A DNA stretch of 64,000 bases from Nitrospirota bacterium (GTDB lineage: Bacteria > Nitrospirota > UBA9217). The translations under genes were made by a program, and so were the position numbers. Below the pieces are notes generated by a model, which did no database searches, was not told where the DNA came from, and saw only the letters and a program-made list of their open reading frames with translations. Shown one piece after another: positions 3,517 to 17,363 of this stretch (positions are counted from its first letter, which is position 1; each line of letters starts with the position of its first letter). The stretch lies in contig CAVVUN010000006.1 of NCBI GenBank assembly GCA_963751455.1, forward strand, positions 160,001 to 224,000, written 5' to 3'.

Positions 3517-3690
3517 CCTAAAAAAAGCATTTGGGACGCAGAAAAATCGGATAAACGCAGATAAGGTCGGATAAAAAAACGTTCTTGTATCGTAAAAGCA
3601 GTCACCCTGCGGGTGAATTTTTTCTCTAAAAATTCTTTTGTTTGATCTGCGGTTATCTGCGTTCATCTGCGCCCAACTGCCGTTTTCAGG
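3517..3690. mobile_element. 174-bp MITE-like element, ends CCT(A/G)AAAA, 5-bp target duplication ATTAC, internal CGCAGAT-repeat hairpin
   Basis: ATTAC at 3512-3516 and 3691-3695; imperfect terminal inverted repeats of ~30-45 bp. Confidence 0.6.
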
Positions 3691-3789
3691 ATTACAGAAT
3701 GAAGCTTTGCAATATAACCCGGTCTGCCGGCGATCGTGAGTTTCAGGAAGAAGTCAAGGTACGACTTCTACAGCTTCAATTATGGGAAT

Positions 3790-3911
3790 GCGTTCAGGCG
3801 CTTTTGGAATCGAGCAGGATAGTCGACCGGAATAATGGCAACAGGCCTAAGGTTATCGGGCAGACCAAGAATTTCGCTCATCATTTCCTCTTTGAAGGTA
3901 CAAGCCGCCAT
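3790..3911 (-). pseudogene. nitroreductase C-terminal remnant
   Basis: Translates to ...FKEEMMSEILGLPDNLRPVAIIPVDYPA, matching the nitroreductase C-terminal LGLP....PVAII.VGYP pattern; no N-terminus present. Confidence 0.5.
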
Positions 3912-4382
3912 GATTTCCAGGAATAAGCCTCCCAGTCTGATCGAACTCTCCATGCATCAACGCTTCTTCATCATACCCGGTCAGGTCAAGTCTCGGACTG
4001 ACTCTTGTGCGAAACATGTAGCCGTGCTCTGCGGTGTTGGAAGTCAGCATGGCAAATCGAATCTAAGTACCCGGTGGTTCCTCAGGATCCCGCTTTAGGC
4101 AATCTCGATCTCTAAGCGTCCGTGAGTGCGATCAGGGGATTTTGCACCTGGTCCCATCGTTCCCGGAAAAACATTCCCGACAAGGCAGGCCGTATATTCA
4201 GGAAGGCCATGGCAATGGAGGCCATGCTGTAATACTGGGTTTCCCTGAGTTCCGACTTGTACCGAGGACACTGTGAAGCGTCGATTGGATCGGATGAGTA
4301 AACTATCGCATTGTAAGTTCGGTAAAATGGAGTTGACAGGGGGACTATAGGACGTCCCCCAAGGTCCTTCCCCGGCAGCCCT

Positions 4383-5105
4383 TTAAATCTCGGGCTCCCA
4401 GCTGAGGTCGCCCGCCATTTCCCACTGAACAAAATTTCTGATCACCTGTCTCGCGTCTTCAGGCATATCATTAAAACGGAGGCCCATGCCCGGTTCGAAT
4501 TCAATCCTGCCTTCGAGGCGGGCGGTCCTGACCACAACTGCTTCCAGTTTTATCGTTGTTACGTCATGGGGCAAACTGTACCTGATATGCAGGATTGTGC
4601 CTTCGGGGAGCGGAATCGGGGTCCGAAGATACATTCCTCCCTCAGAAAGATTTATGCAGGTAAGTTCATCTTCAGGAGCGCCTTCCTCGATCGTTACCCT
4701 GAACTTGACGGAAATTCTTGGATCGTTTCTCGGTTCCTTGCAAAGACGGCCGAGAACACGGAAAGCGAGCGCAACGTCAACCGGTTTTGCAATGATCGCA
4801 GCGCACCCCGAGGAGATTAATCTTTCTTTTTTTTCCGTATTTTCCTCGGCAGTGAAAAGTACGAGGGGGAAATCCTTCACTGCCGGATCACGTCTGAGCA
4901 GAGAAATCGATTTCTGAAGAGCCTGCCCGGGCAGGTCGCCGTCAAGGATTATCAGCTCGAACCTGTTTTCCCCGGCAAGAACGACAGCCTCTTCCGCCGT
5001 TTTTGCCAGTATCGGTTTGTACCAAAGCCGCTTCATCAGAATACTTAGATCCATCTGGCCGTAAGCGGTGTGACAGACTATCAAAACAGTTTTTCCCGTA
5101 AACAT
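4383..5105 (-). CDS. atypical receiver domain + PilZ c-di-GMP-binding protein
   Basis: REC fold (IILDGDLP, AKP) lacking the N-terminal acidic pair; PilZ motifs RNDPR (RxxxR) and NLSEGG (D/NxSxxG); GMGLRF. Confidence 0.85.
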   Translation of the reverse strand: MFTGKTVLIVCHTAYGQMDLSILMKRLWYKPILAKTAEEAVVLAGENRFELIILDGDLPGQALQKSISLLRRDPAVKDFPLVLFTAEENTEKKERLISSGCAAIIAKPVDVALAFRVLGRLCKEPRNDPRISVKFRVTIEEGAPEDELTCINLSEGGMYLRTPIPLPEGTILHIRYSLPHDVTTIKLEAVVVRTARLEGRIEFEPGMGLRFNDMPEDARQVIRNFVQWEMAGDLSWEPEI

Positions 5106-5130
5106 TCAGGCTTCTGTCCTTTCCTGTTTT

Positions 5131-8100
5131 CTATGCCTCATAGCCAAGCTGCCGTATAAAGAGCGCTGCTATACTCGGGTCAAAATCCACTTCGCTCTTA
5201 TCTCTTAAATACTGCATTACGTTCTCTTTACTCCATGCGGGACGGTATGGCCGGTCGGAGCTTAATGCGTCCCAGACATCTACAACCGAAAAGATACGCG
5301 CTGCAAGCGGTATTTTTTCTCCTTTAAGTCCTTCAGGATACCCGGTCCCGTCCCATTTTTCATGATGACGTAAGGGTATATCGAGCGCAGGCCGTAAAAA
5401 AGCGATCGGCGAGAGAAGATCGTGCGCAAAAACAGGGTGCTTTCGCATTATGATCCATTCCTCTTCCGAGAGCTTCCCCGGCTTCAGAAGAATATGGTCG
5501 GGAATTCCCATTTTCCCGATGTCATGCAGGAGCGATCCTCTCCGGATGTGGACAAGCATATCCTCTCTTGTACCCATCTCACGGGCGATCTTTACGGTCA
5601 TGTCCGTGACCCTCCGGGAATGCCCTTCCGTTTCCTTGTCGCGCAGATCGAGCGCCCGGGACCAACCTTCGATGGTTGCATCGTATGCAAGGGCGAGTTC
5701 GTCATTGGCATGCTGTAAATCGCCGAAGAGCGAAGCCATATCTATCGCAATCGCCGCCTGCTGTGCCAATGCTTCGAAAAATTCGAGCCACGGCTTATCA
5801 GGCGTCAGGGGTCTCCGGTTTAAGACTTCGAGAACACCCTTCACCTGCCCTTTGATGACGAGCGGTGCAACATGATGGGAAACAAACCTTTCTCCCGTGA
5901 GCTGGCTCACATGGGCGCACATGGTGTGACCGGGAACGGCCTCTGGTACGCTGACCACGGTCCGTTCAAGCGCTGCGCGTCCAGCGCATCCCTCGCCCAG
6001 TTTTATTCTTGACTGTTCGATGTCCCGGGTCCGGAACCCGTGACCTGCGGCGTACGTCAGAGTGCGTGAATGAGGATTGAGCAGAAGTACAGCTGCCGCG
6101 TCGGCCTGAAGTTCCTTTGAAACGTGGGCAAGCAGCACGTTCAGCGTTACTCGCATATCCAGGCTGGAGCTGATCGCAATATCGATCTCATGCAGGGCCT
6201 GCAGGTGGTGCATCTGCTGCAAAGCCTGCTCGTGAAGGGTCAAACGGCGTACTGCAATGGCCGCAATTTCTCCGATCGCCGTTAGCAGCCTCACCCCCTC
6301 TTGCTTGATCGTCTTCCTGCATCCGATCATGATCGCGCCTATCGTCCTTTCTTCAGCAATCAGCGGAACGCATGCAACGGAGTTCAGTTTGTTGATCGCT
6401 TCCGGCCGGACTATCCGGGAGTCGTTCAAAAAATCGTCGCTCGAATAGGCTTTGCCGCCGGTGATAACGTGTCCCAGTACGCCTTCACCCGGCGGCAACC
6501 GGCGTCCCGTCCATTCGCTCAACTCGCCCCAACCCAACTCGACGAGGGTTTCTCCGGTAGCCGGTTCGAGAATGCCTATTGCGGCAGCCTCAATATCCAG
6601 AGACTCTACCGTATGAACCAGGATCAAGGGAAACTGATCCGCACGCGTGGAAGCCGACCGCAAGGCAATGCTTAACCGCGAAATCGATTCCAGTTCGCGC
6701 TCGCGCTGTTTCCGGTTCGTGATGTTATCGAATACCGCGATAAAACGCTGCTTTTCAGTGCTGTACGCGGAGACGGACAACCATGTTTCGAGGGGATCCA
6801 GGTATATTTCAAACTTTTCCCCCTTGCCGGTCAACGACACCCTGCCGTAAATTTCAAACAATTGCGGATAGGCCTCGCGTATACCCGGTATCACTTCGGT
6901 CACTTTTTTCCCGATCACGTTCGTCAGCCCGGTCAATCCTTCGAAGGCGGCGTTGACCTCGATATAGACGAAGTCCTTCGGCCGGCCGTCTTCAAAAAGC
7001 ATCTGACAATAAGCAAATCCCTCGAGCATGTTATCGAAGAGCGAGTGATAGCGATTTTCGCTCGCGCGCAATGTTTTTTCGCTCTGAATTCGGGTGGCAA
7101 TTTCGGACTCGAGTTCTTCCTTCGCGACAACAGCCTGCTCGGTGAATCGCTTGGTTTCACTCGTCCGCTTCATGATCGAAAGAATGTAGGCCGTCAATAG
7201 ACCTGTGATAACAAGCCCGCCTCCCAGCACGTCCCACGAATGACCGTACCGTCGACCGGCCAGGTACCCGGGTGCGGGAGTGGCAAGAAAAGTCCATTTT
7301 CTGCCTGCTATTTCGATTGTTTTGTCGTAATGCACCCCTTTCCGAAGGAAAGCTCTTTCATCGCCCGCATTGTCTGAAAGGGGAGTTCGAATCGACGGAG
7401 GATATGCATACAACAGGCGACTGTCTTGCTGCGAGGTCTCATCGTAGAGACGGATTGCGATATTTTGCCGGTCGAGATAAGACAAATATTTCTCTATCAG
7501 GCCGTTAATCGAGAAAACGCCCGCCACGTAGCCGCTCAAACGTTCACGACGGGCTTCCAGCGAATCAGGAACGGCTCCTTCCCCGTAGAGTGGGTGAAAA
7601 ACAGTAAACAAGAAACCCGCGTCAACCTTCTGAACCAGTGTCGATCCGGAAATGACAACCATCGTCCCGTTATCGCTGGATTTTTGCAGCGCATCTCGAC
7701 GAGTCGGATCAGAGGCGATATCGAAACCGAACGCTGCCTTGTTATCTGAATAGGGCTCGACGAAATAAGCGGGAAAGTATTCGCGGCGCTTTCCTGCCCG
7801 CGTCATGCCCCCCTGTGCCTTGAGTTCCGTGAGCTCAAACCCGGGCAGCCCCTCCTGCCTTGCTGCCGACTCATATCCGGCTCTCCGGGAATACGGCACG
7901 CGGGGAACCCACGCTAAAGCCTGTACCGCGGGATTATGCCGCATAAATGGCTGAACAAAGGCGTGAAACTCCTTCCGGGTGATCATGTCGGCATGGACAT
8001 AAAAAGCAGCGAGGGCTTCCATCTGTTGGAGGCTTTCCTCGATGCCTATCCGCAATGCTTCAATCAGTTCATCCGACTTGCTGTTGAATTCCAACTGGAG

Positions 8101-8271
8101 GCGGTCTCGGCGGTCATTACGGGAGAGAATAAACAGCGCAACGGATATCGCCACTCCCAAACAAACAACCAGCACTAACAGGACGTATTGATGTCTAAAG
8201 AGTTTATTGAATATGCCGGGAGTTTTGCCGGTCAAGCCGGTTTTACTATTTTGGCTCTTTCTGAAGTCCAT
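5131..8271 (-). CDS. membrane CHASE-PAS-GAF-GAF-HD-GYP cyclic-dinucleotide phosphodiesterase
   Basis: TM-CHASE (ALAWVPRV, YFVEP..N..AFGFD)-TM, PAS, two GAF domains, LLHDIGK and HHEKWDGTGYP; TAAGGAG RBS before ATG 8271. Confidence 0.9.
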   Translation of the reverse strand: MDFRKSQNSKTGLTGKTPGIFNKLFRHQYVLLVLVVCLGVAISVALFILSRNDRRDRLQLEFNSKSDELIEALRIGIEESLQQMEALAAFYVHADMITRKEFHAFVQPFMRHNPAVQALAWVPRVPYSRRAGYESAARQEGLPGFELTELKAQGGMTRAGKRREYFPAYFVEPYSDNKAAFGFDIASDPTRRDALQKSSDNGTMVVISGSTLVQKVDAGFLFTVFHPLYGEGAVPDSLEARRERLSGYVAGVFSINGLIEKYLSYLDRQNIAIRLYDETSQQDSRLLYAYPPSIRTPLSDNAGDERAFLRKGVHYDKTIEIAGRKWTFLATPAPGYLAGRRYGHSWDVLGGGLVITGLLTAYILSIMKRTSETKRFTEQAVVAKEELESEIATRIQSEKTLRASENRYHSLFDNMLEGFAYCQMLFEDGRPKDFVYIEVNAAFEGLTGLTNVIGKKVTEVIPGIREAYPQLFEIYGRVSLTGKGEKFEIYLDPLETWLSVSAYSTEKQRFIAVFDNITNRKQRERELESISRLSIALRSASTRADQFPLILVHTVESLDIEAAAIGILEPATGETLVELGWGELSEWTGRRLPPGEGVLGHVITGGKAYSSDDFLNDSRIVRPEAINKLNSVACVPLIAEERTIGAIMIGCRKTIKQEGVRLLTAIGEIAAIAVRRLTLHEQALQQMHHLQALHEIDIAISSSLDMRVTLNVLLAHVSKELQADAAAVLLLNPHSRTLTYAAGHGFRTRDIEQSRIKLGEGCAGRAALERTVVSVPEAVPGHTMCAHVSQLTGERFVSHHVAPLVIKGQVKGVLEVLNRRPLTPDKPWLEFFEALAQQAAIAIDMASLFGDLQHANDELALAYDATIEGWSRALDLRDKETEGHSRRVTDMTVKIAREMGTREDMLVHIRRGSLLHDIGKMGIPDHILLKPGKLSEEEWIIMRKHPVFAHDLLSPIAFLRPALDIPLRHHEKWDGTGYPEGLKGEKIPLAARIFSVVDVWDALSSDRPYRPAWSKENVMQYLRDKSEVDFDPSIAALFIRQLGYEA

Positions 8272-8389
8272 ATTTCTTCTCCTTAATGTCATCCGTGGAA
8301 CGGCGGAACCGAAAGTGAAAGCGGCCAATTGTAGGGTCCCGGCTGAGCATTCTCGGATAGAACAAAATGCTGAATAATCGCTATTTTCT

Positions 8390-8435
8390 ATTTTAATGAT
8401 TTTCTGCAACTTTGTTTACTACCCGTTCGGGCAGG
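8390..8435 (-). promoter_or_regulatory. lux-box-like operator ACTACCCGTTCGGGCAGG (8418-8435) plus -10 TAAAAT (8395-8390)
   Basis: 16/18 identical to the box at 16383-16400; CT-N12-AG core; same 22-nt spacing to the -10. Confidence 0.7.
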
Positions 8436-8522
8436 CAGTTTTTTTGGTAATTACAAGGAATTTTGGTGAGAATGGGAATACGCGGATGGGGGTACTTTCG
8501 AAAGTATAAGCGCTGCCGGATC

Positions 8523-9350
8523 TTACAGTTGGATCAAGTTGTGTTCGAGCGCAGCCATAATGGCCTGCGACCGGTTCGCGACGTTCAGTTTCTGAAATAT
8601 GTTCTTCAAATGGAATTTGACGGTGTCCTGTGTGATCTCCAGGATGGAGGCTATCTCCCAGTTGTTCTTTCCCTCCTTGACCCAGACGAGTATCTCCTTT
8701 TCGCGGACCGTAAGGGAAACAGTTTCACTCTTGTCGTTTAACACGCGGTTCAGCTGGGGGACGACGACCTCCAGGATCGCATTCTGGCACTCGACCTCGG
8801 CGGCCTTTACCGTGATATGCAGCTGCGTGGCAATGGCTTTGAGGTCCTTGTCCTCTGCAAGCAACCCGAGGACCTCACGCTGGTTTTTATCGATCCGCTC
8901 CGGAATCTTCAGCTCCTTCTGCCGCAGACGCGCGGCGTACTCCTTGATCAGGACCCCGGCTACCCGGTTGCTGAGATAGCCCCCTCCGGCGGACACGCGG
9001 TTGATCGCGCTGATCACTTCCCGGAACGCGCAGTCCTTGAGCAGATAGCCCACTGCCCCTGCCTTGAGCATTTCGAGCACCATGCGCTTGTCCAGGTGCA
9101 TCGAGAGCGCGATCACCTTGACGGCGGGATTTGCGGCCTTGATCCGGCTGGTCGCGTCGATCCCGTTCACCCCGGGCATCGAGATGTCCATGATGACGAT
9201 GTCGGGGCGCAGTTTTCCCGAAAGCTCGATCGCCGCTTCGCCGTCCTCGGCCTCGGCTAAGACCCTCATGTGCGTCTGCTCGGCGATCAGCATTCTCAGC
9301 CCCTCGCGCAGCAGCTTATGATCGTCGGCAAGAAGTATCCGTATATCCAC
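8523..9350 (-). CDS. NarL/LuxR-family response regulator with REC, a degenerate HTH and a second intact LuxR-type HTH
   Basis: REC motifs LADDH, MDISMP, YLLKD; degenerate HTH (QREVLGLLAE.K....IA..L.IT.K); C-terminal LT.REKEIL.WVKEGK.NWEIA.IL.I...TVKFHL.NIF.KL.V.NRSQA. Confidence 0.9.
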   Translation of the reverse strand: MDIRILLADDHKLLREGLRMLIAEQTHMRVLAEAEDGEAAIELSGKLRPDIVIMDISMPGVNGIDATSRIKAANPAVKVIALSMHLDKRMVLEMLKAGAVGYLLKDCAFREVISAINRVSAGGGYLSNRVAGVLIKEYAARLRQKELKIPERIDKNQREVLGLLAEDKDLKAIATQLHITVKAAEVECQNAILEVVVPQLNRVLNDKSETVSLTVREKEILVWVKEGKNNWEIASILEITQDTVKFHLKNIFQKLNVANRSQAIMAALEHNLIQL

Positions 9351-9624
9351 AGAGCCCCCCTCTATTCCGGGTCTTTTCCTTTAAGGAGCTTCAGGAAGTG
9401 CAAGATCCTTGTTTTTTTTCTGCACCGCGGTTCTCATCGCCGCGCAGACATGCCAGTTATATTTCTATTTTACTTGTCGCTACAGCCGCCCATAGCGCTA
9501 ATTGCTACGCATAGCCTGCATTCGCGCTTGGCACTCATAACCGCTGGCCACAAGCCGCGCAGGCAAGATTCGTGATTTACCGATCTTGCTGCCAGGCATG
9601 TAAAGCACGGACGCTGCTCACGCC

Positions 9625-9670
9625 CTACTCTCGCGCTGCGCACTCGAAGTCGTTGGGTGCAGGCGGGATG
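9625..9670. repeat. partial copy of the internal module of the 12566/43379 repeat family
   Basis: ctcgcgct-gcgcactcg...ggtgcaggcggga is shared with ~12673-12712. Confidence 0.5.
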
Positions 9671-9709
9671 CAGGGGTGTCGGGAAATACCAAACAAAGGC
9701 ACACGATTC

Positions 9710-11571
9710 TCAATTTTCTTTTCCCTGCAGCGGCGCGGTCAGCACTACCCTGGTCCCCCGGCCCGGGGCGCTCTCGATCGCGCAGGCAGCCGCCCAATCG
9801 TTTCAGCCGCTCCTGTACCAGAAAAACCCGAACCCGCTGACCTTGCCCGCGTTCATGTCCGCGTCGAAACCCGTGCCGTTGTCCTCGACGGCAATGTTGA
9901 TCAGCCGGCCTTTGGCGGAGACAGAGATGCGCACCTCCGTCAGCCCGGGAATGCTTGACCGCGTTCAGGAGCAGCTCCCGCACGCACCGGAACAGGAGAT
10001 AGCGCGTTTCTCCCTGCACCTGCTTGGACTCGCCGTCATCTTCGACTCTGATCAGTATTCCGTGGGTCCTCTGAAAGGCCTCGGCCAGCGCATCAAGGGC
10101 GGGTTTGAAGCCAAGCTCGGTCAGGATCGGCGGATTCAGCTCGATCGTCAGGGAGCGGGTGTACTGAATGGTCTGCTCCAGCGTCTCTCCGATCGTCCCC
10201 AGGATCCGCTGCGTCTCGGGGCGGCGGCAGCATTTGCTGGAGTCTTCCGACCATGAAGGTCATGACCGCCAGGTTCTGCCCGACATAATCGTGCAGGTCC
10301 GAAGCGATCAGGTGCCGCTCCCGCTCCTCCACGCGCGACTCGAGGGCGGACATTTCCGAGGCAACCGAGAACAACTGATTCTGGTAGAGCCGGATCTTCT
10401 CTTCCATCCCCCTGCGCTCCGTCTGGTCCCGGGCGATCACGAGCGCAGCCCTGCTGCCGTTGAACGGGAAAAGGGCGATCGCTATCTCTGCCTCGACCGG
10501 CGGACCCGTCCAGCTGGCGGTACCGGACGCTGGAGAGGGGCAATGGCGGCCCCTTCCTCCTCGACCTGCAGGAGGCGCGCTTCCATCATGGACCGGCAGC
10601 TCTCATCGATGAAGTCCGCGGCCGGCCTTCCCATCACCTGCAGCGGATCGTCAGCGCCCAGCGAGCTTTAACCCGGAAGGGTTGACGAAAACGATGCGGT
10701 CCTGATGCTGCACGTAAGATGGCGTCGGGAGAGAGCTCCACCAGGCGGCGATACCGCTCCTCGCTCTCCCGAAGGGAACGCTCCGCCTCGCTGCGCGCGC
10801 GCACCATTTCGTTAAAGCTCGCGGCAAGGTTCCCTACCTCGTCAACCGGTTTCGACGGGTACGGGCTCGACCGGAAGCCCCATGCCCAGGGCTTTCACCT
10901 TGTCGGTAAGGTTCACGAGGGGGGCGATTACCTTGCGAATGGCGAAATAAATAAGCGTCGTGCTCAGCAAGAATGAAGATAACCGTAATCAGCACGTTCT
11001 GCTTTATGACCGAAACGATCTCCTGGTGGTAGCTTTCCTTGCTCAGCACGATCCGGGCATAGCCGATCACCTTCGGGTGATGGCCCTTTCCCTTCATGCC
11101 GAAATAGAGCGATTCGTCACGGGCGCCGCCTGAGTCGAGCAGTACTGGCTTGATCAGCTCCAGGGTTTCGGATGTTTCCCGGACCGCGGGAAAGCGCTCC
11201 TCTTCTCCGTACTTCGGCTCCGGGGGCCGCCATTCGTCGAGCGCGGGTTGTCCTTTCCGCTCTTCGTGGATCTTCCGGAACCGGTTGTTATAGATGGATA
11301 CTGCGATGACATCGTGGAGACTGAGGATGTCCCGGGCCGCCTCCCGCAGCATTTTGGGGTTCTCGGCGAAGACCCCCAGCATGGAACTGCGGGACAGGAG
11401 TTCGACCAGCATTTCTCCCTGCTCCCGGAGGCCGGTCTTGGTCTTGTCCTCTTCGCGAAGCACGGCAAAAACGGTAAATACGGACAGCACGACGATGATG
11501 ATGCCGATGAACGCAGACAGCATCTTGACGCCCAGGCTTTTCCGCAGCGCATGGCCGATCTTCCTAGTCAA
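9710..11571 (-). CDS. sensor histidine kinase (TM-periplasmic-TM-HAMP-PAS-HisKA_3-HATPase), about 9 apparent frameshifts
   Basis: Reconstructed across frames: HAMP (GDEVGNLAASFNEM), PAS, H-box ERHLIASDLHDYVGQNL, N-box RELLLNAVKHS, G-boxes VEDNGTGFD, end GTRVVLTAPLQGKEN*. Confidence 0.85.
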
Positions 11572-12488
11572 TCCCTTTCACCCTCCGCATGGTCTCATCC
11601 GTGATCGCAAGCCCCATTTTCGCGGCCACGTTCCTGTTTACGGTGAGAAGCGACGTTCGGGCATACTCGCGGACGGAGCCCGATCCCGTTTTCAATCTGT
11701 TCGCCAACTCGCCGACCTGCACCCCGATATCATAGGGATCGAGGTCAAGGGAGGCCACGGCGCCCATGTCCACATATTTTCGGGAAAAGGTGAAGATGGG
11801 AACTGCCCGCTGAAAGGAAAAACGAAGCAGCAGATCGACATTCTCCGTGGTGACCACACTCGGGTCCGGCAGCATCCAGAAGATGTCGATCCTGTCCTGC
11901 ATGGCGGAGAGCGCTGCCGGCAGCCTGGAAGGATCATGGATCTGCTGGGAAATCAGTTCGAGTCCCGCAGCCCGCGCAGCCTTCACGGCGTCTTCAAAAA
12001 AGGCTCCGGTATTCCGGGGATCGTAGATCACGCCGATCCTTTTCTTGCCCGGGAAAATGTCGTGCATGGCTGCCAGATGGCTTGCCGGCGAAACATCCAT
12101 GCTTATACCGGATATATTCGGTCCCTGGCAGCTGAAGGGCTTCGGAAGGGATTGCCATTGCGTAGATGAGGGGAAGGGTCCTGATCTCTTTCAGCTTCTT
12201 CAGGCCAAGCGTGCCGACCGTGATGACGATGTCAGGCGATTTCGCCAGCACCCTTTCAGGCCCGTCATCGTCGCGAAGCGTCAATTCCCGCACAGAGCAA
12301 TTACACGCGTCCCTCAGCCCGCGCACGACTTCGAGGTGGGGCTGCAGCTGGGCGCTTCTGACCACGACCACACGGCACGGCTCGGCTGCGATAGCAGGAA
12401 TGGAAACTCCGACCACGAGCACAGCGACGAACAGCGCGATCGAACGAACCGTATGGGGGAACTGTGATAGTGATGAGAGTACCATCAT
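11564..12488 (-). CDS. periplasmic substrate-binding protein (ABC_sub_bind-like), one frameshift near 12120
   Basis: Signal peptide; KRIGVIYDP, WMLPD, YVDMGA motifs; overlaps the kinase start; no ABC permease or ATPase nearby. Confidence 0.8.
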
Positions 12489-12565
12489 TCCGTCTTGGGT
12501 TTGGCCTCTGCGGAAGCGACCGTTGAACGAGCATGATGGCGCTCCCCGGCGTCCGCGCCGCGACA

Positions 12566-12763
12566 TGAATCCCGCGCCTTGGAATCCCCCGGCTCCAGCC
12601 GGAGGAAAGCGCTTACTCGCGCCTGGCACGCATAAAGTCGCGTAGGCGAGAGTAAGCAGGCCCCACCATGCACTCGCGCTAGCGCACTCGTAAACACTTG
12701 GTGCAGGCGGGAGGTCGCGTTGTTTGAGGGAGCCCCCGGCTCCTGCCTGGAGGAGGCTCCACT
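12566..12763 (-). repeat. palindromic non-autonomous element (IS200/IS605-like hairpin ends), copy A
   Basis: Reverse complement of the copies at 17520-17629 and 43379-43572 (GGAGCCCCCTCCGGCAGGAGCCGGAGGCTCC ... CCCCCGGCAGGAGCCGGG). Confidence 0.7.
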
Positions 12764-12781
12764 CGATCCGGAGTTATCCTT

Positions 12782-14076
12782 CTACAGGCCGAATTCCAGG
12801 TCCTGCGCGACGAACGGGCCCAGCGTCCTGTCGAAGTATTCTTTCTGGCAATTGAGGCCTTCCATGGTCCCGGACCTCAACAACTGCATGTACCTGCAGC
12901 CGCCGAAGCAGAGCGGCAGATAGCTGCATTCCAGGCATCGGTCGTTCTTCCAGGAATCCAGCCCGTGCGAGGCCCGGTACTCCCGCACCCCGGTCCTCAC
13001 GTCGCCTACGCAGCACTCTTTCCTGCCGATCAGGCCCGGACATTTGTACAGCGTGCCGTCGTAGTTCACGACAAAGCTGTCCCGGAAGTCGAGCAGACAG
13101 GGAGAGGGCAAGACCTTCGGGGCGCGGTAGCCCCGTTTCAGCACCTCTCTGCGCAGGAAGAGCGCGGCCTCGCTGATCCACGGCTCGTTATTGGAGGTGC
13201 AGCCGTCGTGAAAATCCGGCGTCCCGAACTCGCTGCTTTCCTGCAAAACCGGGTCGAACTTGACGACCGGGACCTTCTGCGGGGTAAGTCCGTTTGCGAT
13301 GAGATGGTCGAGCAGGAGCGGGAACCGGTCATACTCGTCGCGGGTATAATTGCCGCCGATCTGGATACGGATCAGTTCGCGAGACGTCCTTGATGTTCCG
13401 GAGGATGACATCGAACGAGCCAATGCCCGATCGAAAAGGACGGAACCTGTTGTGGATGTCCTCCGGTCCGTCAAGCGTGACCTTGGCGCCCGTCAGTCCG
13501 AGCGGGACCAGTTTCCGGACCACTTCGGGCGTGAGCAGGGTCCCGTTGGTCACGAGCCCGAATTCGTAGCGCAGACCCCTTTCGGCAGCGTACGTGCCGA
13601 GCTTTTCCGAGATGCTCGATGATCCGCGCCGATGCTCAGCAGCGGTTCGCCGCCGTAAAAGGTGACCTCGATGGTCTTCTTCCCGGTCAGGTCCCTGCTT
13701 CTTGACGAAGGCAATGAATGCGTCGGCGGTCTCGTCGGACAGGTACCATTTCCCTTTTCTTTGGCCTTCGAAGCAGTAGGTGCAGGCGAGATTGCAGTCG
13801 AGGTTGAGGACCAGGATGATCCGGACCGACGTATCTGAGAGCGTTCAGTTCGCCGATGTAGCCGAGCATTTCCTGTTTTTCCCGCTCGGGGTCGTCGGTC
13901 ACGAGCCCGAGGCTGCCCAGGGATTCGCGTTCCTCCGGGGAAAGGCGGCCGCTTTCGATGTCTGCGATCAGACCCGAGGGCACGAGGACCGCCGAGGCGT
14001 TGGCGGTCGAGAACAGGACCTGGGAGCCGTCACCCTGCGCGGACGGGAATATTTTCGTATATCGGGACAAATTCAT
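12782..14076 (-). CDS. radical SAM/SPASM peptide maturase (resembles the putative geopeptide maturase family), about 4 apparent frameshifts
   Basis: CNLACTYC (CxxxCxxC, ~13773-13796), FYGGEPLL, VTNGTLL, TLDGP..H...R; SPASM C...YKC...CxxCxxxxxCxGGC...C; ~80-aa N-terminal extension; GAAAGGA RBS. Confidence 0.9.
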
Positions 14077-14107
14077 GAAAATTGTATGAGTCCTTTCAGG
14101 TGGCTGG

Positions 14108-14145
14108 AAAAAAAGGGAGGGAGAGCCTGTTCTGTTCTCCCTCCC
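14108..14145 (-). terminator. rho-independent terminator between the precursor peptide and the maturase
   Basis: GGGAGGGAGA/TCTCCCTCCC 10-bp stem followed by T7 on the minus strand. Confidence 0.75.
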
Positions 14146-14154
14146 AAGCACTTT

Positions 14155-14256
14155 CTATCTTGAAACGTAAGGAGCGATCGAGCCGTAACAACAGAACATT
14201 GCCGCCACTTCTCTTTTATCCATGCCTCTTTTCAGTACTACGATGCGATTCTGCAT
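14155..14256 (-). CDS. putative RiPP precursor peptide MQNRIVVLKRGMDKREVAAMFCCYGSIAPYVSR (33 aa)
   Basis: Hand translation; purine-rich RBS (AGGGGGGGGAG); lies between the TBDR stop and the rSAM gene; CC motif; own terminator; too short for the ORF track. Confidence 0.8.
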   Translation of the reverse strand: MQNRIVVLKRGMDKREVAAMFCCYGSIAPYVSR

Positions 14257-14294
14257 GTTCTCCCCCCCCTTCTCTTTAGAGTTACATATCGCTC

Positions 14295-16176
14295 TTAAAA
14301 GCTATACCGGATGCCTGCCTCCGACCACCGGCCGGGGTTCTTATACAAGCGCTATCGGCATATTGAGCCCCGTTAAAGATATTGTGAACATCGACAAAGA
14401 GTTCGAGCGAGCTGTCGTCATCGGAATAGAGTGTCCTTGGCAGCATGGACGTCAACGATCATGGCCTTATATTTACCCTCATTGAATGCGTCCGAATTCC
14501 AGTAAATATAATGACCTGTCACGAGCATTTTCAGAGTGGCATCGTCATAGTGAAGTCCGAGGTCATAGGTCCGCTGAGGGGTATTCGGGACCGTCCTGCC
14601 GGTTTCAGCGTCCCTGGTGTTCATGAAGGCAGCTCCTGCTGAAAGGAACGTCAAATGGACAGGCTTGCTCCTCAGTTCGATCTCGAGTCCCTGCCTTCGT
14701 GCCTTGCCTTCGTTCACGGCCATGAACTGGGGCCCGGGCAACATGTTCGTTTACGATCAGATCGGCTAACATCATGCCGGTACACATCCATCTTCAGCCA
14801 TACAAAGGGCACTGCGGTTGTCTCAACGCCTGCCTGGTAGGACTTGACCCGTTCCATCCGCAGGTCCGGGTTCGGCACGGTGAATTGGTTGCCCCCGAAG
14901 GTTGCCGAGAGCGGAGGAACATTGAAGCCGCGGGCAGCATAGGTCCGGAGAAGAACGGTATCGAGCGGCTTGTAGGTCATACCGAGACTCGGGCTGTTGA
15001 AATCTCCGTTCGTATCGGTCTCGTCATGCCGGATGCCGGGTGTGAACGAGAACCGGTTGACGGTGATCGTATCGTTCAGGTAGAAGGCGTGCTTTCTCTG
15101 AAAATGCTCCCTGCCGGCCAGCGTGCTCGATTCCAGTTTTCTTGAATCCGCATCCGCACCGAGGACGACGTTGTGTTCCTGCCGCTTCCAGACCAGTTTT
15201 GCGCTCGAGCCGTATCCCGTGTCCTCGTAATAGTCATGCGAAAGTTGAGAACCGGTGCTTGCCTGGTAATTGTAGTAATCGTAGTCCTGACGAATATTCC
15301 AGAAACCGAGATTGAACGTCGTCTCCTTGCTGATCGCCGAGTTCAGCGAAAGGCTCGATCGTACTGTTTCAGTCTTGTTGTCGACGAACAGGTCATAGTC
15401 CGGGATCTCCACGACGCCCCTGTCGAACCGGTCTATAGCTTGTGCTGAACAGGACCTGGGTGGAGTTCGTTATGTCGTAGGTGATCTTGCCGAATGCGTT
15501 GTTCCCGGAAAAATCGTTAAGCGGCCTGAATCCATCCGTCTCCAGCCGCCTGGCCGTAAGGTAGTAGCCCACACCGGTCGTCCTTCCCGGACGCTTCCAT
15601 CCTGAAGTCTCCGGTATTGGCCTTGCCGTACGACGCCGACACCATACCGTTCAACTCGTCGCTGCTTCCTGATTTGGTGATGATGTTGATGACGCCGCCG
15701 AGCGCCGAGCCCCAGGCCGAGGAGGCGGGGCCCTTGATGATCTCGATCTTCTCGATGTTCTGGACCGGGACCGACCCGACTTCCGCGACGGTATCGCTCA
15801 GGTTGTTCAGCGGGATGCCGTCCATGAAGACAGCGACGTGCCAGTTCTCGGAGCCCTGGATCAAGGCCTGTGCGATACTGCCCGGCCCTCCGGTCAGGAA
15901 AACCTGGACACCGGTCACCGTGTTCAATACGTCGGCCAGGGTGTGAGCGTTCATCAGTTTTATATCCTGTGCGGTGACGATCGTGACATTTTCCGCGGTT
16001 TGAGTCAGCGACTTCCGGCTTCTCGTTGAAGACTCGACATACAAGTTATCTTCGGTGAAATACATCAGAAGGAATTTATCATCTTCATCGGGTTTGCTGA
16101 GTACGGGACCTGCGAGCGCCAGCTGTACGCCGAGTAAAGCAATTACGAAAGCTGCCAGAATCCTGTGTTTTTTCAT
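14295..16176 (-). CDS. TonB-dependent receptor, about 4 apparent frameshifts
   Basis: Signal peptide; plug motifs (ENVTIVTAQDI, DGIPLN, IEKIEIIKGPASSAWGSALGGVINIITK); barrel NPDL..E; C-terminal GIRYSF*. Confidence 0.9.
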
Positions 16177-16354
16177 GGCCCTTTCCACCTGTAATGGTTA
16201 ATGAATCTGATAGCAATGCAATTTTATGTATGCAATTACAGGTGGAGTATAAGGAGGGAACCATCCCGTGTCAAGAAATTATCTCCGATCGTCCGGAAAA
16301 TAAACTGCTCTTCGCATGGATCGTGGGAGCCGCCGATATCTCTTAATATGGTTC

Positions 16355-16400
16355 ACTATAGTAAATTGATGCAGAAAATAACACTACCCGTTCGGGTAGT
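16355..16400 (-). promoter_or_regulatory. lux-box-like palindrome ACTACCCG-TT-CGGGTAGT (16383-16400) plus -10 TATAGT (16360-16355)
   Basis: Perfect 8-2-8 inverted repeat with CT-N12-AG core; centre at about -43.5 if the hexamer is -12..-7. Confidence 0.75.
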
Positions 16401-16550
16401 CTGCCCGGGTTATTTTTAATGATGCAGTTTACTTTCCTGTTAAGCCGAAGATCGGTGTCGGTTGCGCAATGTGCGGAAGTTTATGATGTCTTGAATGAAG
16501 TTCCGGGAAGTCAATGATCGTAGGATTCCGGTCTCATGTAGTGCGACCGT

Positions 16551-17363
16551 TCATCTCTTCCGGTAAATTCCCGGACATCCCGGCCAGGGCAGGAACCCGG
16601 CAAAACCGGGAGGCACTGTCTCATGGATTCCCACGACCAGTGCCCCCTGATCGTCGAGTTTATGGTACAATCGGGCCAGAATTTCTTTCTGTAACTCATG
16701 ATCAAAATACGTAAACGCCAGGTTTCTGCACAGAATAAGATGAAACAGTCCCTCTGGTTCCGCTATGCGGACATCCTGTTCAAGAAGGGCCACCTTTTCG
16801 CGTTCCCCTGCCCTGATACAGAAACGGTCTCCCTCGCGGATGAACGCAGTTTTCCAGTCCGGGGGCAGATTTCCGAGACTGCCTGAAGCGTAACAGCCCG
16901 CCTTTGCGCGTTCGATCATGTTCCTGTCCGCGTCGGTAGCGAGGATGGCTATTTTCATAGAAGGGAAGCGGCGGCCCGTGCCGAGGTCCCACAGGACAGC
17001 GAGCGTATACGGCTCCTCGCCGGAAGCGCAGCCGATGCTCCAGCAGCGGAGTTCCGTGCCTCCCTGCGCCATTGCAGCTTCACACAGTCGAACCAGGACA
17101 TCCTTTTCAAGCGATTGAAACACTTCCCGGTCACGATAAAAACGCGAGATCGCAACACGGCATAAGGAGTCGAGAACTTCCCATTCGCTCCTGTTGCCTT
17201 CAAGGAAGGACCGGTACCCGGCTGCATCCGCCAGCCCGAGCGCATGAAGTCGCCCGTCAATCCGATTGCAGACCTGTCCACGAACCTTCCGGAAACCATT
17301 CCACCGCATACGAAGCAGCGGAAGCGACCACTTGAGGAATTGTACGCAATCCTGGTCCCTCAT
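16551..17363 (-). CDS. CheR-family methyltransferase (orphan)
   Basis: ISRFYRD, WSIGCASGEEPYTLA, ATDAD, LILCRN...YFD, G.HE. Confidence 0.9.
   Translation of the reverse strand: MRDQDCVQFLKWSLPLLRMRWNGFRKVRGQVCNRIDGRLHALGLADAAGYRSFLEGNRSEWEVLDSLCRVAISRFYRDREVFQSLEKDVLVRLCEAAMAQGGTELRCWSIGCASGEEPYTLAVLWDLGTGRRFPSMKIAILATDADRNMIERAKAGCYASGSLGNLPPDWKTAFIREGDRFCIRAGEREKVALLEQDVRIAEPEGLFHLILCRNLAFTYFDHELQKEILARLYHKLDDQGALVVGIHETVPPGFAGFLPWPGCPGIYRKR

Follow-up and report, generated by a model that had tools for sequence, protein, structure and literature searches.

A hybrid response regulator and a predicted lux-type activator box at a geopeptide-type radical SAM cassette of a Nitrospirota bacterium

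Peptide autoinduction is known mainly from monoderm bacteria. Nine genes on the minus strand of a contig from a Nitrospirota bacterium raise the question of whether a diderm cell may also make, modify and then sense a ribosomal peptide. The genes lie in a stretch of 64,000 nucleotides (the window; positions 160,001 to 224,000 of CAVVUN010000006.1, assembly GCA_963751455.1) and run from a TonB-dependent receptor (TBDR) to a REC-PilZ protein, in the order that an earlier sequence-only reading had claimed. The best reading of the locus is that a peptide-derived product is sensed by its own producer, through the TBDR, a periplasmic substrate-binding protein (SBP) and a sensor kinase, in a feedback loop; its probability is put at roughly 0.55. 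The maturase/peptide family has already been named, and what is new here is the hybrid response regulator and its lux-type box.

Because window genes are frameshifted, function was read largely from relatives with unbroken genes, among them a second cassette of the same genome. The maturase was sought in 401 genomes of Nitrospirota; matches at E ≤ 1e-60 were present in 54 and the curated cut-off was passed in 43. Sixty of the 65 maturase places listed were fetched, comprising 55 geopeptide-type loci and five loci of a sister clade. The genome carrying the window is denoted G000, other sampled genomes Gnnn and fetched loci Lnnn.

The hybrid regulator and its operator

The regulator gene (8523..9350, minus strand) is intact and encodes 275 residues; the NarL-type regulators in other cassettes with HisKA_3 kinases have about 215. 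Its product comprises a receiver (REC), a degenerate NarL-type helix-turn-helix (HTH) and a second HTH of the type found in LuxR receptors for acyl-homoserine lactones (AHLs). The receiver clusters with those of the short cassette regulators (SH-aLRT 96 in a quick tree), and the degenerate HTH that comes next resembles theirs. Across the 64 family genomes, the best matches of the second HTH other than its orthologs are two AHL receptors adjoining luxI (56-57% identity), and its best matches in the PDB are CviR, RhlR and SdiA. When 66 HTH rows were placed in a tree, the 12 second HTHs formed one group (85/77) joined to the same two AHL receptors (92/82) and fell inside a larger LuxR-type set, which a split of 99/96 divides from the HTHs of the short NarL-type regulators; with an alignment of just 59 columns, the fine order of this tree is uncertain. 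The AHL-binding domain PF03472 is absent from the regulator, and neither this domain nor a luxI gene was found in G000. The regulator has a two-part domain ancestry, in which a NarL-type receiver protein likely borrowed the HTH of an AHL-LuxR receptor. The geopeptide cassettes of L015, L038 and L050 carry receiver proteins of 190-200 residues with LuxR-type HTHs of separate origin, which suggests that such HTHs have been recruited repeatedly by these cassettes.

The sequence-only reading had also placed one operator before both the first gene and the HD-GYP phosphodiesterase gene. Two sites were indeed recovered with the pattern CTACCC-N4-GGGTAG and at most one mismatch, at 16384..16399 upstream of the cassette and at 8419..8434 (both minus strand), differing at one of 16 bases. 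They give four strand-matches in the window against 0.40 expected, a number reached by none of 100 shuffles. Five fetched loci with the long regulator hold 18 such sites. None was found in the remaining 55 loci, 817 kb in all and with two G239 paralogs and one G000 paralog among them. All seven long-regulator cassettes that have the region 5' of the receptor gene carry the box there (the window, L039, L040, L042, L046, L139 and L221); L040 and L042 share one genus, and the sequences of L072 and L222 stop short of this region. A matrix built from 46 sites of other genomes placed its four best matches in the 5.7 Mb of G000 within 34 kb around the cassette, with 3, 0, 0, 0 and 1 such matches genome-wide in five shuffles. 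Single genome-wide box matches were rejected as evidence, since a reversed control pattern gave 1-3 matches in many genomes.

The box also has a fixed relation to predicted promoters. A TA-N3-T hexamer lies exactly 23 nt past it at 49 of 88 sites, including all four in G000, against 1-9 at other offsets. With this spacing the centre of the box falls near -43, where lux boxes are found. The hexamers in the window are TATAGT (16355..16360, minus), the -10 element of a predicted inducible promoter of the cassette, and TAAAAT (8395-8390), that of the predicted promoter of the HD-GYP/PilZ pair. Downstream of the first box there is also a near-consensus sigma-70 promoter, TTGACA-17-TATACT (16246..16274, minus; 11 of 12 matches), a predicted basal promoter that recurs in L040 and L042, and the two together fit basal plus induced expression.

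Among 15 luxI/luxR pairs retrieved by HTH similarity, luxI is preceded by the box in nine. In the recognition helix of the regulator an arginine precedes a conserved threonine in all six box-free pairs, and in none of the nine with the box nor in the regulator studied here; a one-residue rule is offered, in which Arg or non-Arg before this Thr sets which box a LuxR-type HTH reads. By its palindrome, its promoter spacing and its place before luxI the operator is classed as a lux-type activator box. The hybrid regulator probably binds it, because the box co-occurs with the regulator and no other HTH of this type was found in G000 (123 bits against at most 50 for others). Given where the box occurs, before the receptor gene in seven of seven such cassettes and before luxI in nine of 15 pairs but in none of the 55 other loci, positive feedback is well supported for this regulator subtype on comparative grounds. 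The self-induction proposed earlier thus stands, by genomics only, for cassettes with the long regulator; feedback across the whole family is unsupported, and a family-wide autoregulatory motif was rejected when cassettes with a regulator of another type yielded none.

The box was also considered as an element of AHL systems only. This was rejected because in Nitrospira, Acetobacter, Nevskia and Chloroflexota it also comes after other LuxR-family genes, and it therefore marks an HTH subclass. Boxes just downstream of LuxR-family genes in the first three genera were seen in L152-L161, L165, L167, L199 and L204. Long regulators also occur without a cassette (L074:2364-3619, L075:8010-11003, L077:306-9743): in G115 the box lies 5' of the regulator's own gene, in G024 REC and REC-GGDEF genes come next, and in G139 B12-radical SAM and non-ribosomal peptide synthetase-like genes come next. 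The record of L139 is labelled Alphaproteobacteria, with a regulator nearly identical in trees to that of G151, and represents either misbinning or transfer.

Maturase, peptide and the conserved cassette

The maturase gene (12782..14076, minus) encodes a radical S-adenosylmethionine (SAM)/SPASM enzyme and contains about four frameshifts. Its four pieces tile TIGR04280 with 59.5, 55.3, 106.2 and 289.4 bits, about 510 bits as a sum of pieces rather than a single score, against a cut-off of 400; two intact maturases, the G000 paralog and the L139 ortholog, score 574 and 571 bits. The CxxxCxxC motif is present and the SPASM model TIGR04085 scores 50.3 bits (cut-off 27). The maturase is on these scores a member of TIGR04280, the 'geopeptide' radical SAM family. 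Its next-best families include the CefB, PapB and SCIFF maturases, and its nearest PDB entry is 5WGG, the enzyme CteB.

The peptide gene (14155..14256, minus) encodes a 33-residue geopeptide-like precursor with a basic leader, Cys-Cys and a tail of ten residues. The window peptide gave no match to the precursor model TIGR04229 (cut-off 30 bits), and 10 of 27 aligned peptides match it at E ≤ 1, the best at 3.8e-5. The window peptide is related to this family by context and is not a member by score. The same architecture is seen in 47 precursors chosen by eye: a leader that is basic and in some is a Lys/Ala-rich repeat, followed by Cys-Cys and 7-13 residues of variable tail. Cys-Cys was part of the search, and the plausible precursors found by a leader-based search had it too. 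A histone-like Lys/Ala/Thr repeat replaces the usual leader in L018, L021, L022, L025, L031, L037, L049, L051, L052 and L068, and tandem precursor genes occur in L016 (7626 and 7819, same core) and L029 (7617 and 7792, different cores). The terminator proposed after the window peptide gene was confirmed as a hairpin and T-run (14108..14145, minus; -20 kcal/mol), which may serve as a terminator or a processing stem.

The remaining genes supply the import and sensing functions. The TBDR (14295..16176, minus; about six frameshifts) has a plug and a barrel and is BtuB-like, its intact paralog being nearest to BtuB in the PDB. The SBP (PF04392; 11564..12488, minus; one frameshift) has no accompanying ABC permease, as claimed, and overlaps the start of the kinase gene (11571) by 8 nt. 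The kinase (9710..11571, minus; about nine frameshifts) has the layout sCache_4-HAMP-PAS-HisKA_3; sCache_4 and HisKA_3 are found in its own pieces, and HAMP and PAS were read from the intact ortholog in L139. The spacers between maturase and SBP (12569..12766) and between kinase and regulator (9392..9697) each contain a dispersed genome-wide repeat. Both repeat families have many copies across G000 without an Rfam match, and no Rfam match was found for 3600-17000. The second G000 cassette (C1:433313-426035; L030:6036-13314) is intact; it lacks a box, its kinase is a hybrid kinase and its peptide tail differs from that of the window.

The expectation that receptor, binding protein and kinase stay tied to the maturase across genomes held up. 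Among the 55 geopeptide-type loci a TBDR is present in 48, an SBP in 47 and a kinase in 44, and all three are present in 29 of the 33 such loci at least 17 kb long. This linkage survives inversions, with several gene orientations seen, while kinase type and regulator differ among cassettes; both of the sole SBPs of this kind in G000 sit in peptide cassettes. In the sister clade (L064, L065, L067, L069 and L071) the maturase is followed by an SBP of the oligopeptide family (family 5) and a dCache kinase, as checked with Pfam for three SBPs and two kinases. The SPASM enzymes of this clade score below the TIGR04280 cut-off, and no precursors were recognised near them. A half-size gene (about 190 codons) of the major facilitator superfamily (MFS) directly follows the maturase in five of 60 loci and is a candidate exporter (L014:9427-9993, L029:9265-9834, L045, L048 and L056).

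NCBIfam describes the geopeptide family as a hypothetical equivalog with TIGR04229 as precursor and TIGR04280 as maturase. The maturase family and the adjacent short Cys-Cys peptide are shared with this description, whereas the receptor, SBP, kinase, hybrid regulator and box all lie outside it. A literature search found no chemistry or function for the family, most subscription journals being outside its coverage. The cassette is a real, named yet unstudied system for a ribosomally synthesised and post-translationally modified peptide (RiPP).

Ligand and state of the sensing module

In the proposed circuit the Cys-Cys peptide would be turned by the maturase into a small product that is then released. 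The enzyme is expected to form thioether-type links at both cysteines, because its nearest families are Cys-directed SPASM enzymes, and proteases and an exporter encoded elsewhere would then release a short product centred on Cys-Cys. The product would be re-imported through the TBDR, and the loaded SBP would act as a co-receptor on the sCache domain of the kinase. A dimer of the phosphorylated regulator, on the box at about -43, would lift transcription above that of the basal promoter and so give positive feedback. Other boxes would couple the loop to breakdown of cyclic diguanylate (c-di-GMP), to a run of genes for a REC-kinase, an SBP and a methyl-accepting chemotaxis protein (MCP), and perhaps to a sulfation block.

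The ligand is the weak step of this circuit, and it is by inference that the product is assigned to it. The tight linkage, the sister clade with its own SBP and kinase, and the half-size MFS gene in five of 60 loci speak for the assignment. Many observations weigh against self-sensing. The peptide tail had been predicted to co-vary with the SBP, the TBDR and the kinase; this was not borne out, and the tail instead tracks the maturase (partial Mantel tests with maturase distance removed, p = 1.0, 0.26 and 0.81 respectively; n = 36, 33 and 34). The SBP has the fold of a single-amino-acid binder, with a conserved cleft; of the 401 genomes 168 have homologs of it and 54 have the maturase, and all 20 sampled unlinked SBPs adjoin a kinase and none a maturase. 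The 11 family genomes with a full-length regulator have it beside the cassette in six, have the cassette elsewhere in two, and give no maturase hit in three. In cassettes that have another type of regulator no shared upstream motif was detected, no peptidase recurs among cassette neighbours, and no close homolog of the half-size MFS gene was found in G000. Finally, four cassette genes are frameshifted in this assembly, and positive feedback alone cannot tell a signal from a metallophore. As the small pocket is conserved and the tail does not co-vary with the sensors, the sensed part would be the constant core and not the tail. A small constant ligand derived from Cys-Cys, rather than a strain-specific peptide, would fit both sides, with maturase-free modules listening in or sensing other compounds.

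Loops of the same form are known for siderophores, as in pyoverdine and pyochelin signalling. The product might similarly be a peptide-derived metallophore or cofactor, the TBDR importing its loaded form and the loop reporting capture and raising synthesis. The solved structures closest to the TBDR are those of BtuB and of siderophore receptors, the cleft of the SBP is conserved, and the sister clade uses family-5 SBPs, a family that includes metal-complex binders. Cys-Cys is constant between varying flanks, a pattern that an excerpt of PMC9389541 gives for small-cofactor precursors such as that of pyrroloquinoline quinone (PQQ). Against this, no permease or metal-handling gene recurs among the neighbours, no shared repressor-type motif lies 5' of the receptors in three other regulator groups, the box-linked genes are chiefly for signalling and sulfation, and the output HTH and its box are of quorum-sensing type; a metallophore or cofactor seems unlikely. 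A slightly less probable alternative is that the TBDR, SBP and kinase sense an unrelated small molecule, for example one resembling an aromatic amino acid, with the modified peptide as an output of the regulon; as precedent, the same excerpt (PMC9389541) describes streptococcal RaS-RiPPs as the output of a quorum signal distinct from them. The modelled fold of the SBP paralog, which is that of the Trp/Phe/Tyr-binding-type SBPs 3LFT, 3LKV and 6HNI, would suit this, as would the common maturase-free modules, the lack of tail co-variation and the presence of regulator and box in three maturase-free genomes. It accords poorly with the peptide and maturase lying inside the module, or back-to-back with it, across many families and rearrangements, with nearly all the best-scoring SBPs being maturase-linked, and with the sister clade repeating the layout with an unrelated SBP family. 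Self-sensing of the peptide product is accordingly ranked above both alternatives, at slightly better than even odds.

A different doubt concerns only this strain's copy and not the family. Its sensing half may be a decaying relic, with the intact regulator and the downstream regulon run by another kinase. About 20 single-base frameshifts (TBDR 6, maturase 4, SBP 1, kinase 9) fall within 6.5 kb and none in the three downstream genes, where the regulator is unbroken and the HD-GYP and PilZ genes are single open frames. Ranked by long open frames, the stretch also falls in the bottom 1% of 872 genome bins, repeats have inserted in two spacers, and orphan copies of the regulator occur elsewhere. 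Yet every break is a single base, and no in-frame stop was found in the four broken genes, an approximate result as the aligner penalised stops. Identity to orthologs is 36-63%, except for kinase stretches aligned across breaks, adjacent contig bins are poor in long open frames too, and other few-contig assemblies show the same type of break (L020, L040, L068 and L073). The frameshifts are thus probably assembly or sequencing errors, favoured over decay by about four to one.

Outputs and relation to known systems

The HD-GYP protein (5131..8271, minus) has the layout CHASE-PAS-GAF-GAF-HD-GYP, and the REC-like/PilZ gene (4383..5105, minus) begins 25 nt past its stop. The motifs of both are canonical (HD, HHExxDGxGYP and DxxDA; RxxxR and NxSxxG for c-di-GMP binding), consistent with a phosphodiesterase and a c-di-GMP reader. 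The c-di-GMP output proposed from the sequence is credible in this genome, where the box with its 23-nt promoter spacing stands before the HD-GYP gene, but it is not general. A PilZ gene is near the cassette in 0 of 55 loci and an HD-GYP gene in four of 55; the REC-PilZ protein occurs in 41 of the 64 family genomes, and the 24 others of its loci that were examined carry no box. On these counts c-di-GMP was rejected as a conserved output. In L139 a REC-PilZ gene lies behind a box 1.9 kb past the regulator, and in G227 a PAS-HD-GYP gene is downstream of a box-led run; this output is local to G000 and perhaps these two genomes.

Commoner near boxes is a block of genes for a sulfotransferase, a CysQ-type phosphatase, ATP sulfurylase/adenosine 5'-phosphosulfate (APS) kinase, a chromate-family transporter, a phosphonate-type SBP, an MCP and CheW (G091, G151, G227 and G239). 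To the left of the window G000 has two extra boxes, at distances of 11 and 17 kb and again with a -10 hexamer 23 nt on. The G000 sulfation block is at C6:138-148 kb; one box precedes a kinase/SBP/MCP run and one is 1.2 kb above the APS kinase gene. Such extra-box runs (L001:14725-18971, L002:1335-7020; C6 ~138700-149000 in G000) comprise REC-HisKA, phosphonate-type SBP and MCP genes, and APS kinase, chromate transporter, CysQ-type and sulfotransferase genes. It is possible that they form a second make-and-sense module, for a sulfated compound. Of the first five peptides with a long regulator, four contain Pro-Tyr, as does that of L042, whereas the L139 tail has no Tyr. Sulfation of a peptide tyrosine by the box-linked sulfotransferase was considered and is weakened by this tail and by sulfation blocks beside short-regulator cassettes; it is kept as a lead only.

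The closest LuxI/LuxR system is CviI/CviR of Chromobacterium, which shares the HTH family, a 16-bp palindrome of 6-4-6 form and an activator position by the promoter. The CviR site, CTGNCCNNNNGGNCAG, and positive feedback on the synthase gene are described in an excerpt of PMC12114271. The system here differs in that no AHL-binding domain or luxI was found in G000 and the input comes through a receiver that a membrane kinase phosphorylates. The characterised NspR1 box of Nitrospira is a different, 20-bp sequence in the part of PMC8553950 that treats it.

SCIFF ranthipeptides are reportedly tied to quorum sensing, and so is streptide, a radical SAM RiPP, in the excerpt of PMC9389541. With these radical SAM RiPPs and with the monoderm Agr and ComCDE circuits the cassette shares a ribosomal peptide, a modifying enzyme and a two-component system in one locus, and alike has basal and induced promoters, which here are predicted. 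It differs in its diderm host, TonB receptor and SBP co-receptor, in having no linked peptidase-transporter, and in a tail that does not co-vary with the sensor. With PQQ- and methanobactin-type systems, in which a peptide-derived cofactor or metallophore has its own TBDR, the cassette has in common a small precursor, a TBDR and a periplasmic binding protein, and with PQQ a SPASM enzyme too; here there are no further tailoring enzymes, client enzyme or permease, and a histidine kinase follows the SBP.

It may tentatively be supposed, at somewhat less than even odds, that a diderm quorum-sensing system has swapped signals: a radical SAM peptide circuit of TonB receptor, binding-protein co-receptor and kinase would have captured an AHL-LuxR DNA-binding domain along with its lux box, letting a peptide-derived autoinducer drive a lux-type loop and a regulon for c-di-GMP, chemoreceptors and sulfation in Nitrospirota without an AHL synthase. 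The hybrid regulator and its box provide a predicted DNA target and hence a direct reporter assay. The regulator also points to a probable way for a two-component system to take over a quorum-sensing regulon, through one added HTH. If the self-sensing reading is true, the cassette would be a peptide-derived self-signalling loop in a cell of the Gram-negative type.

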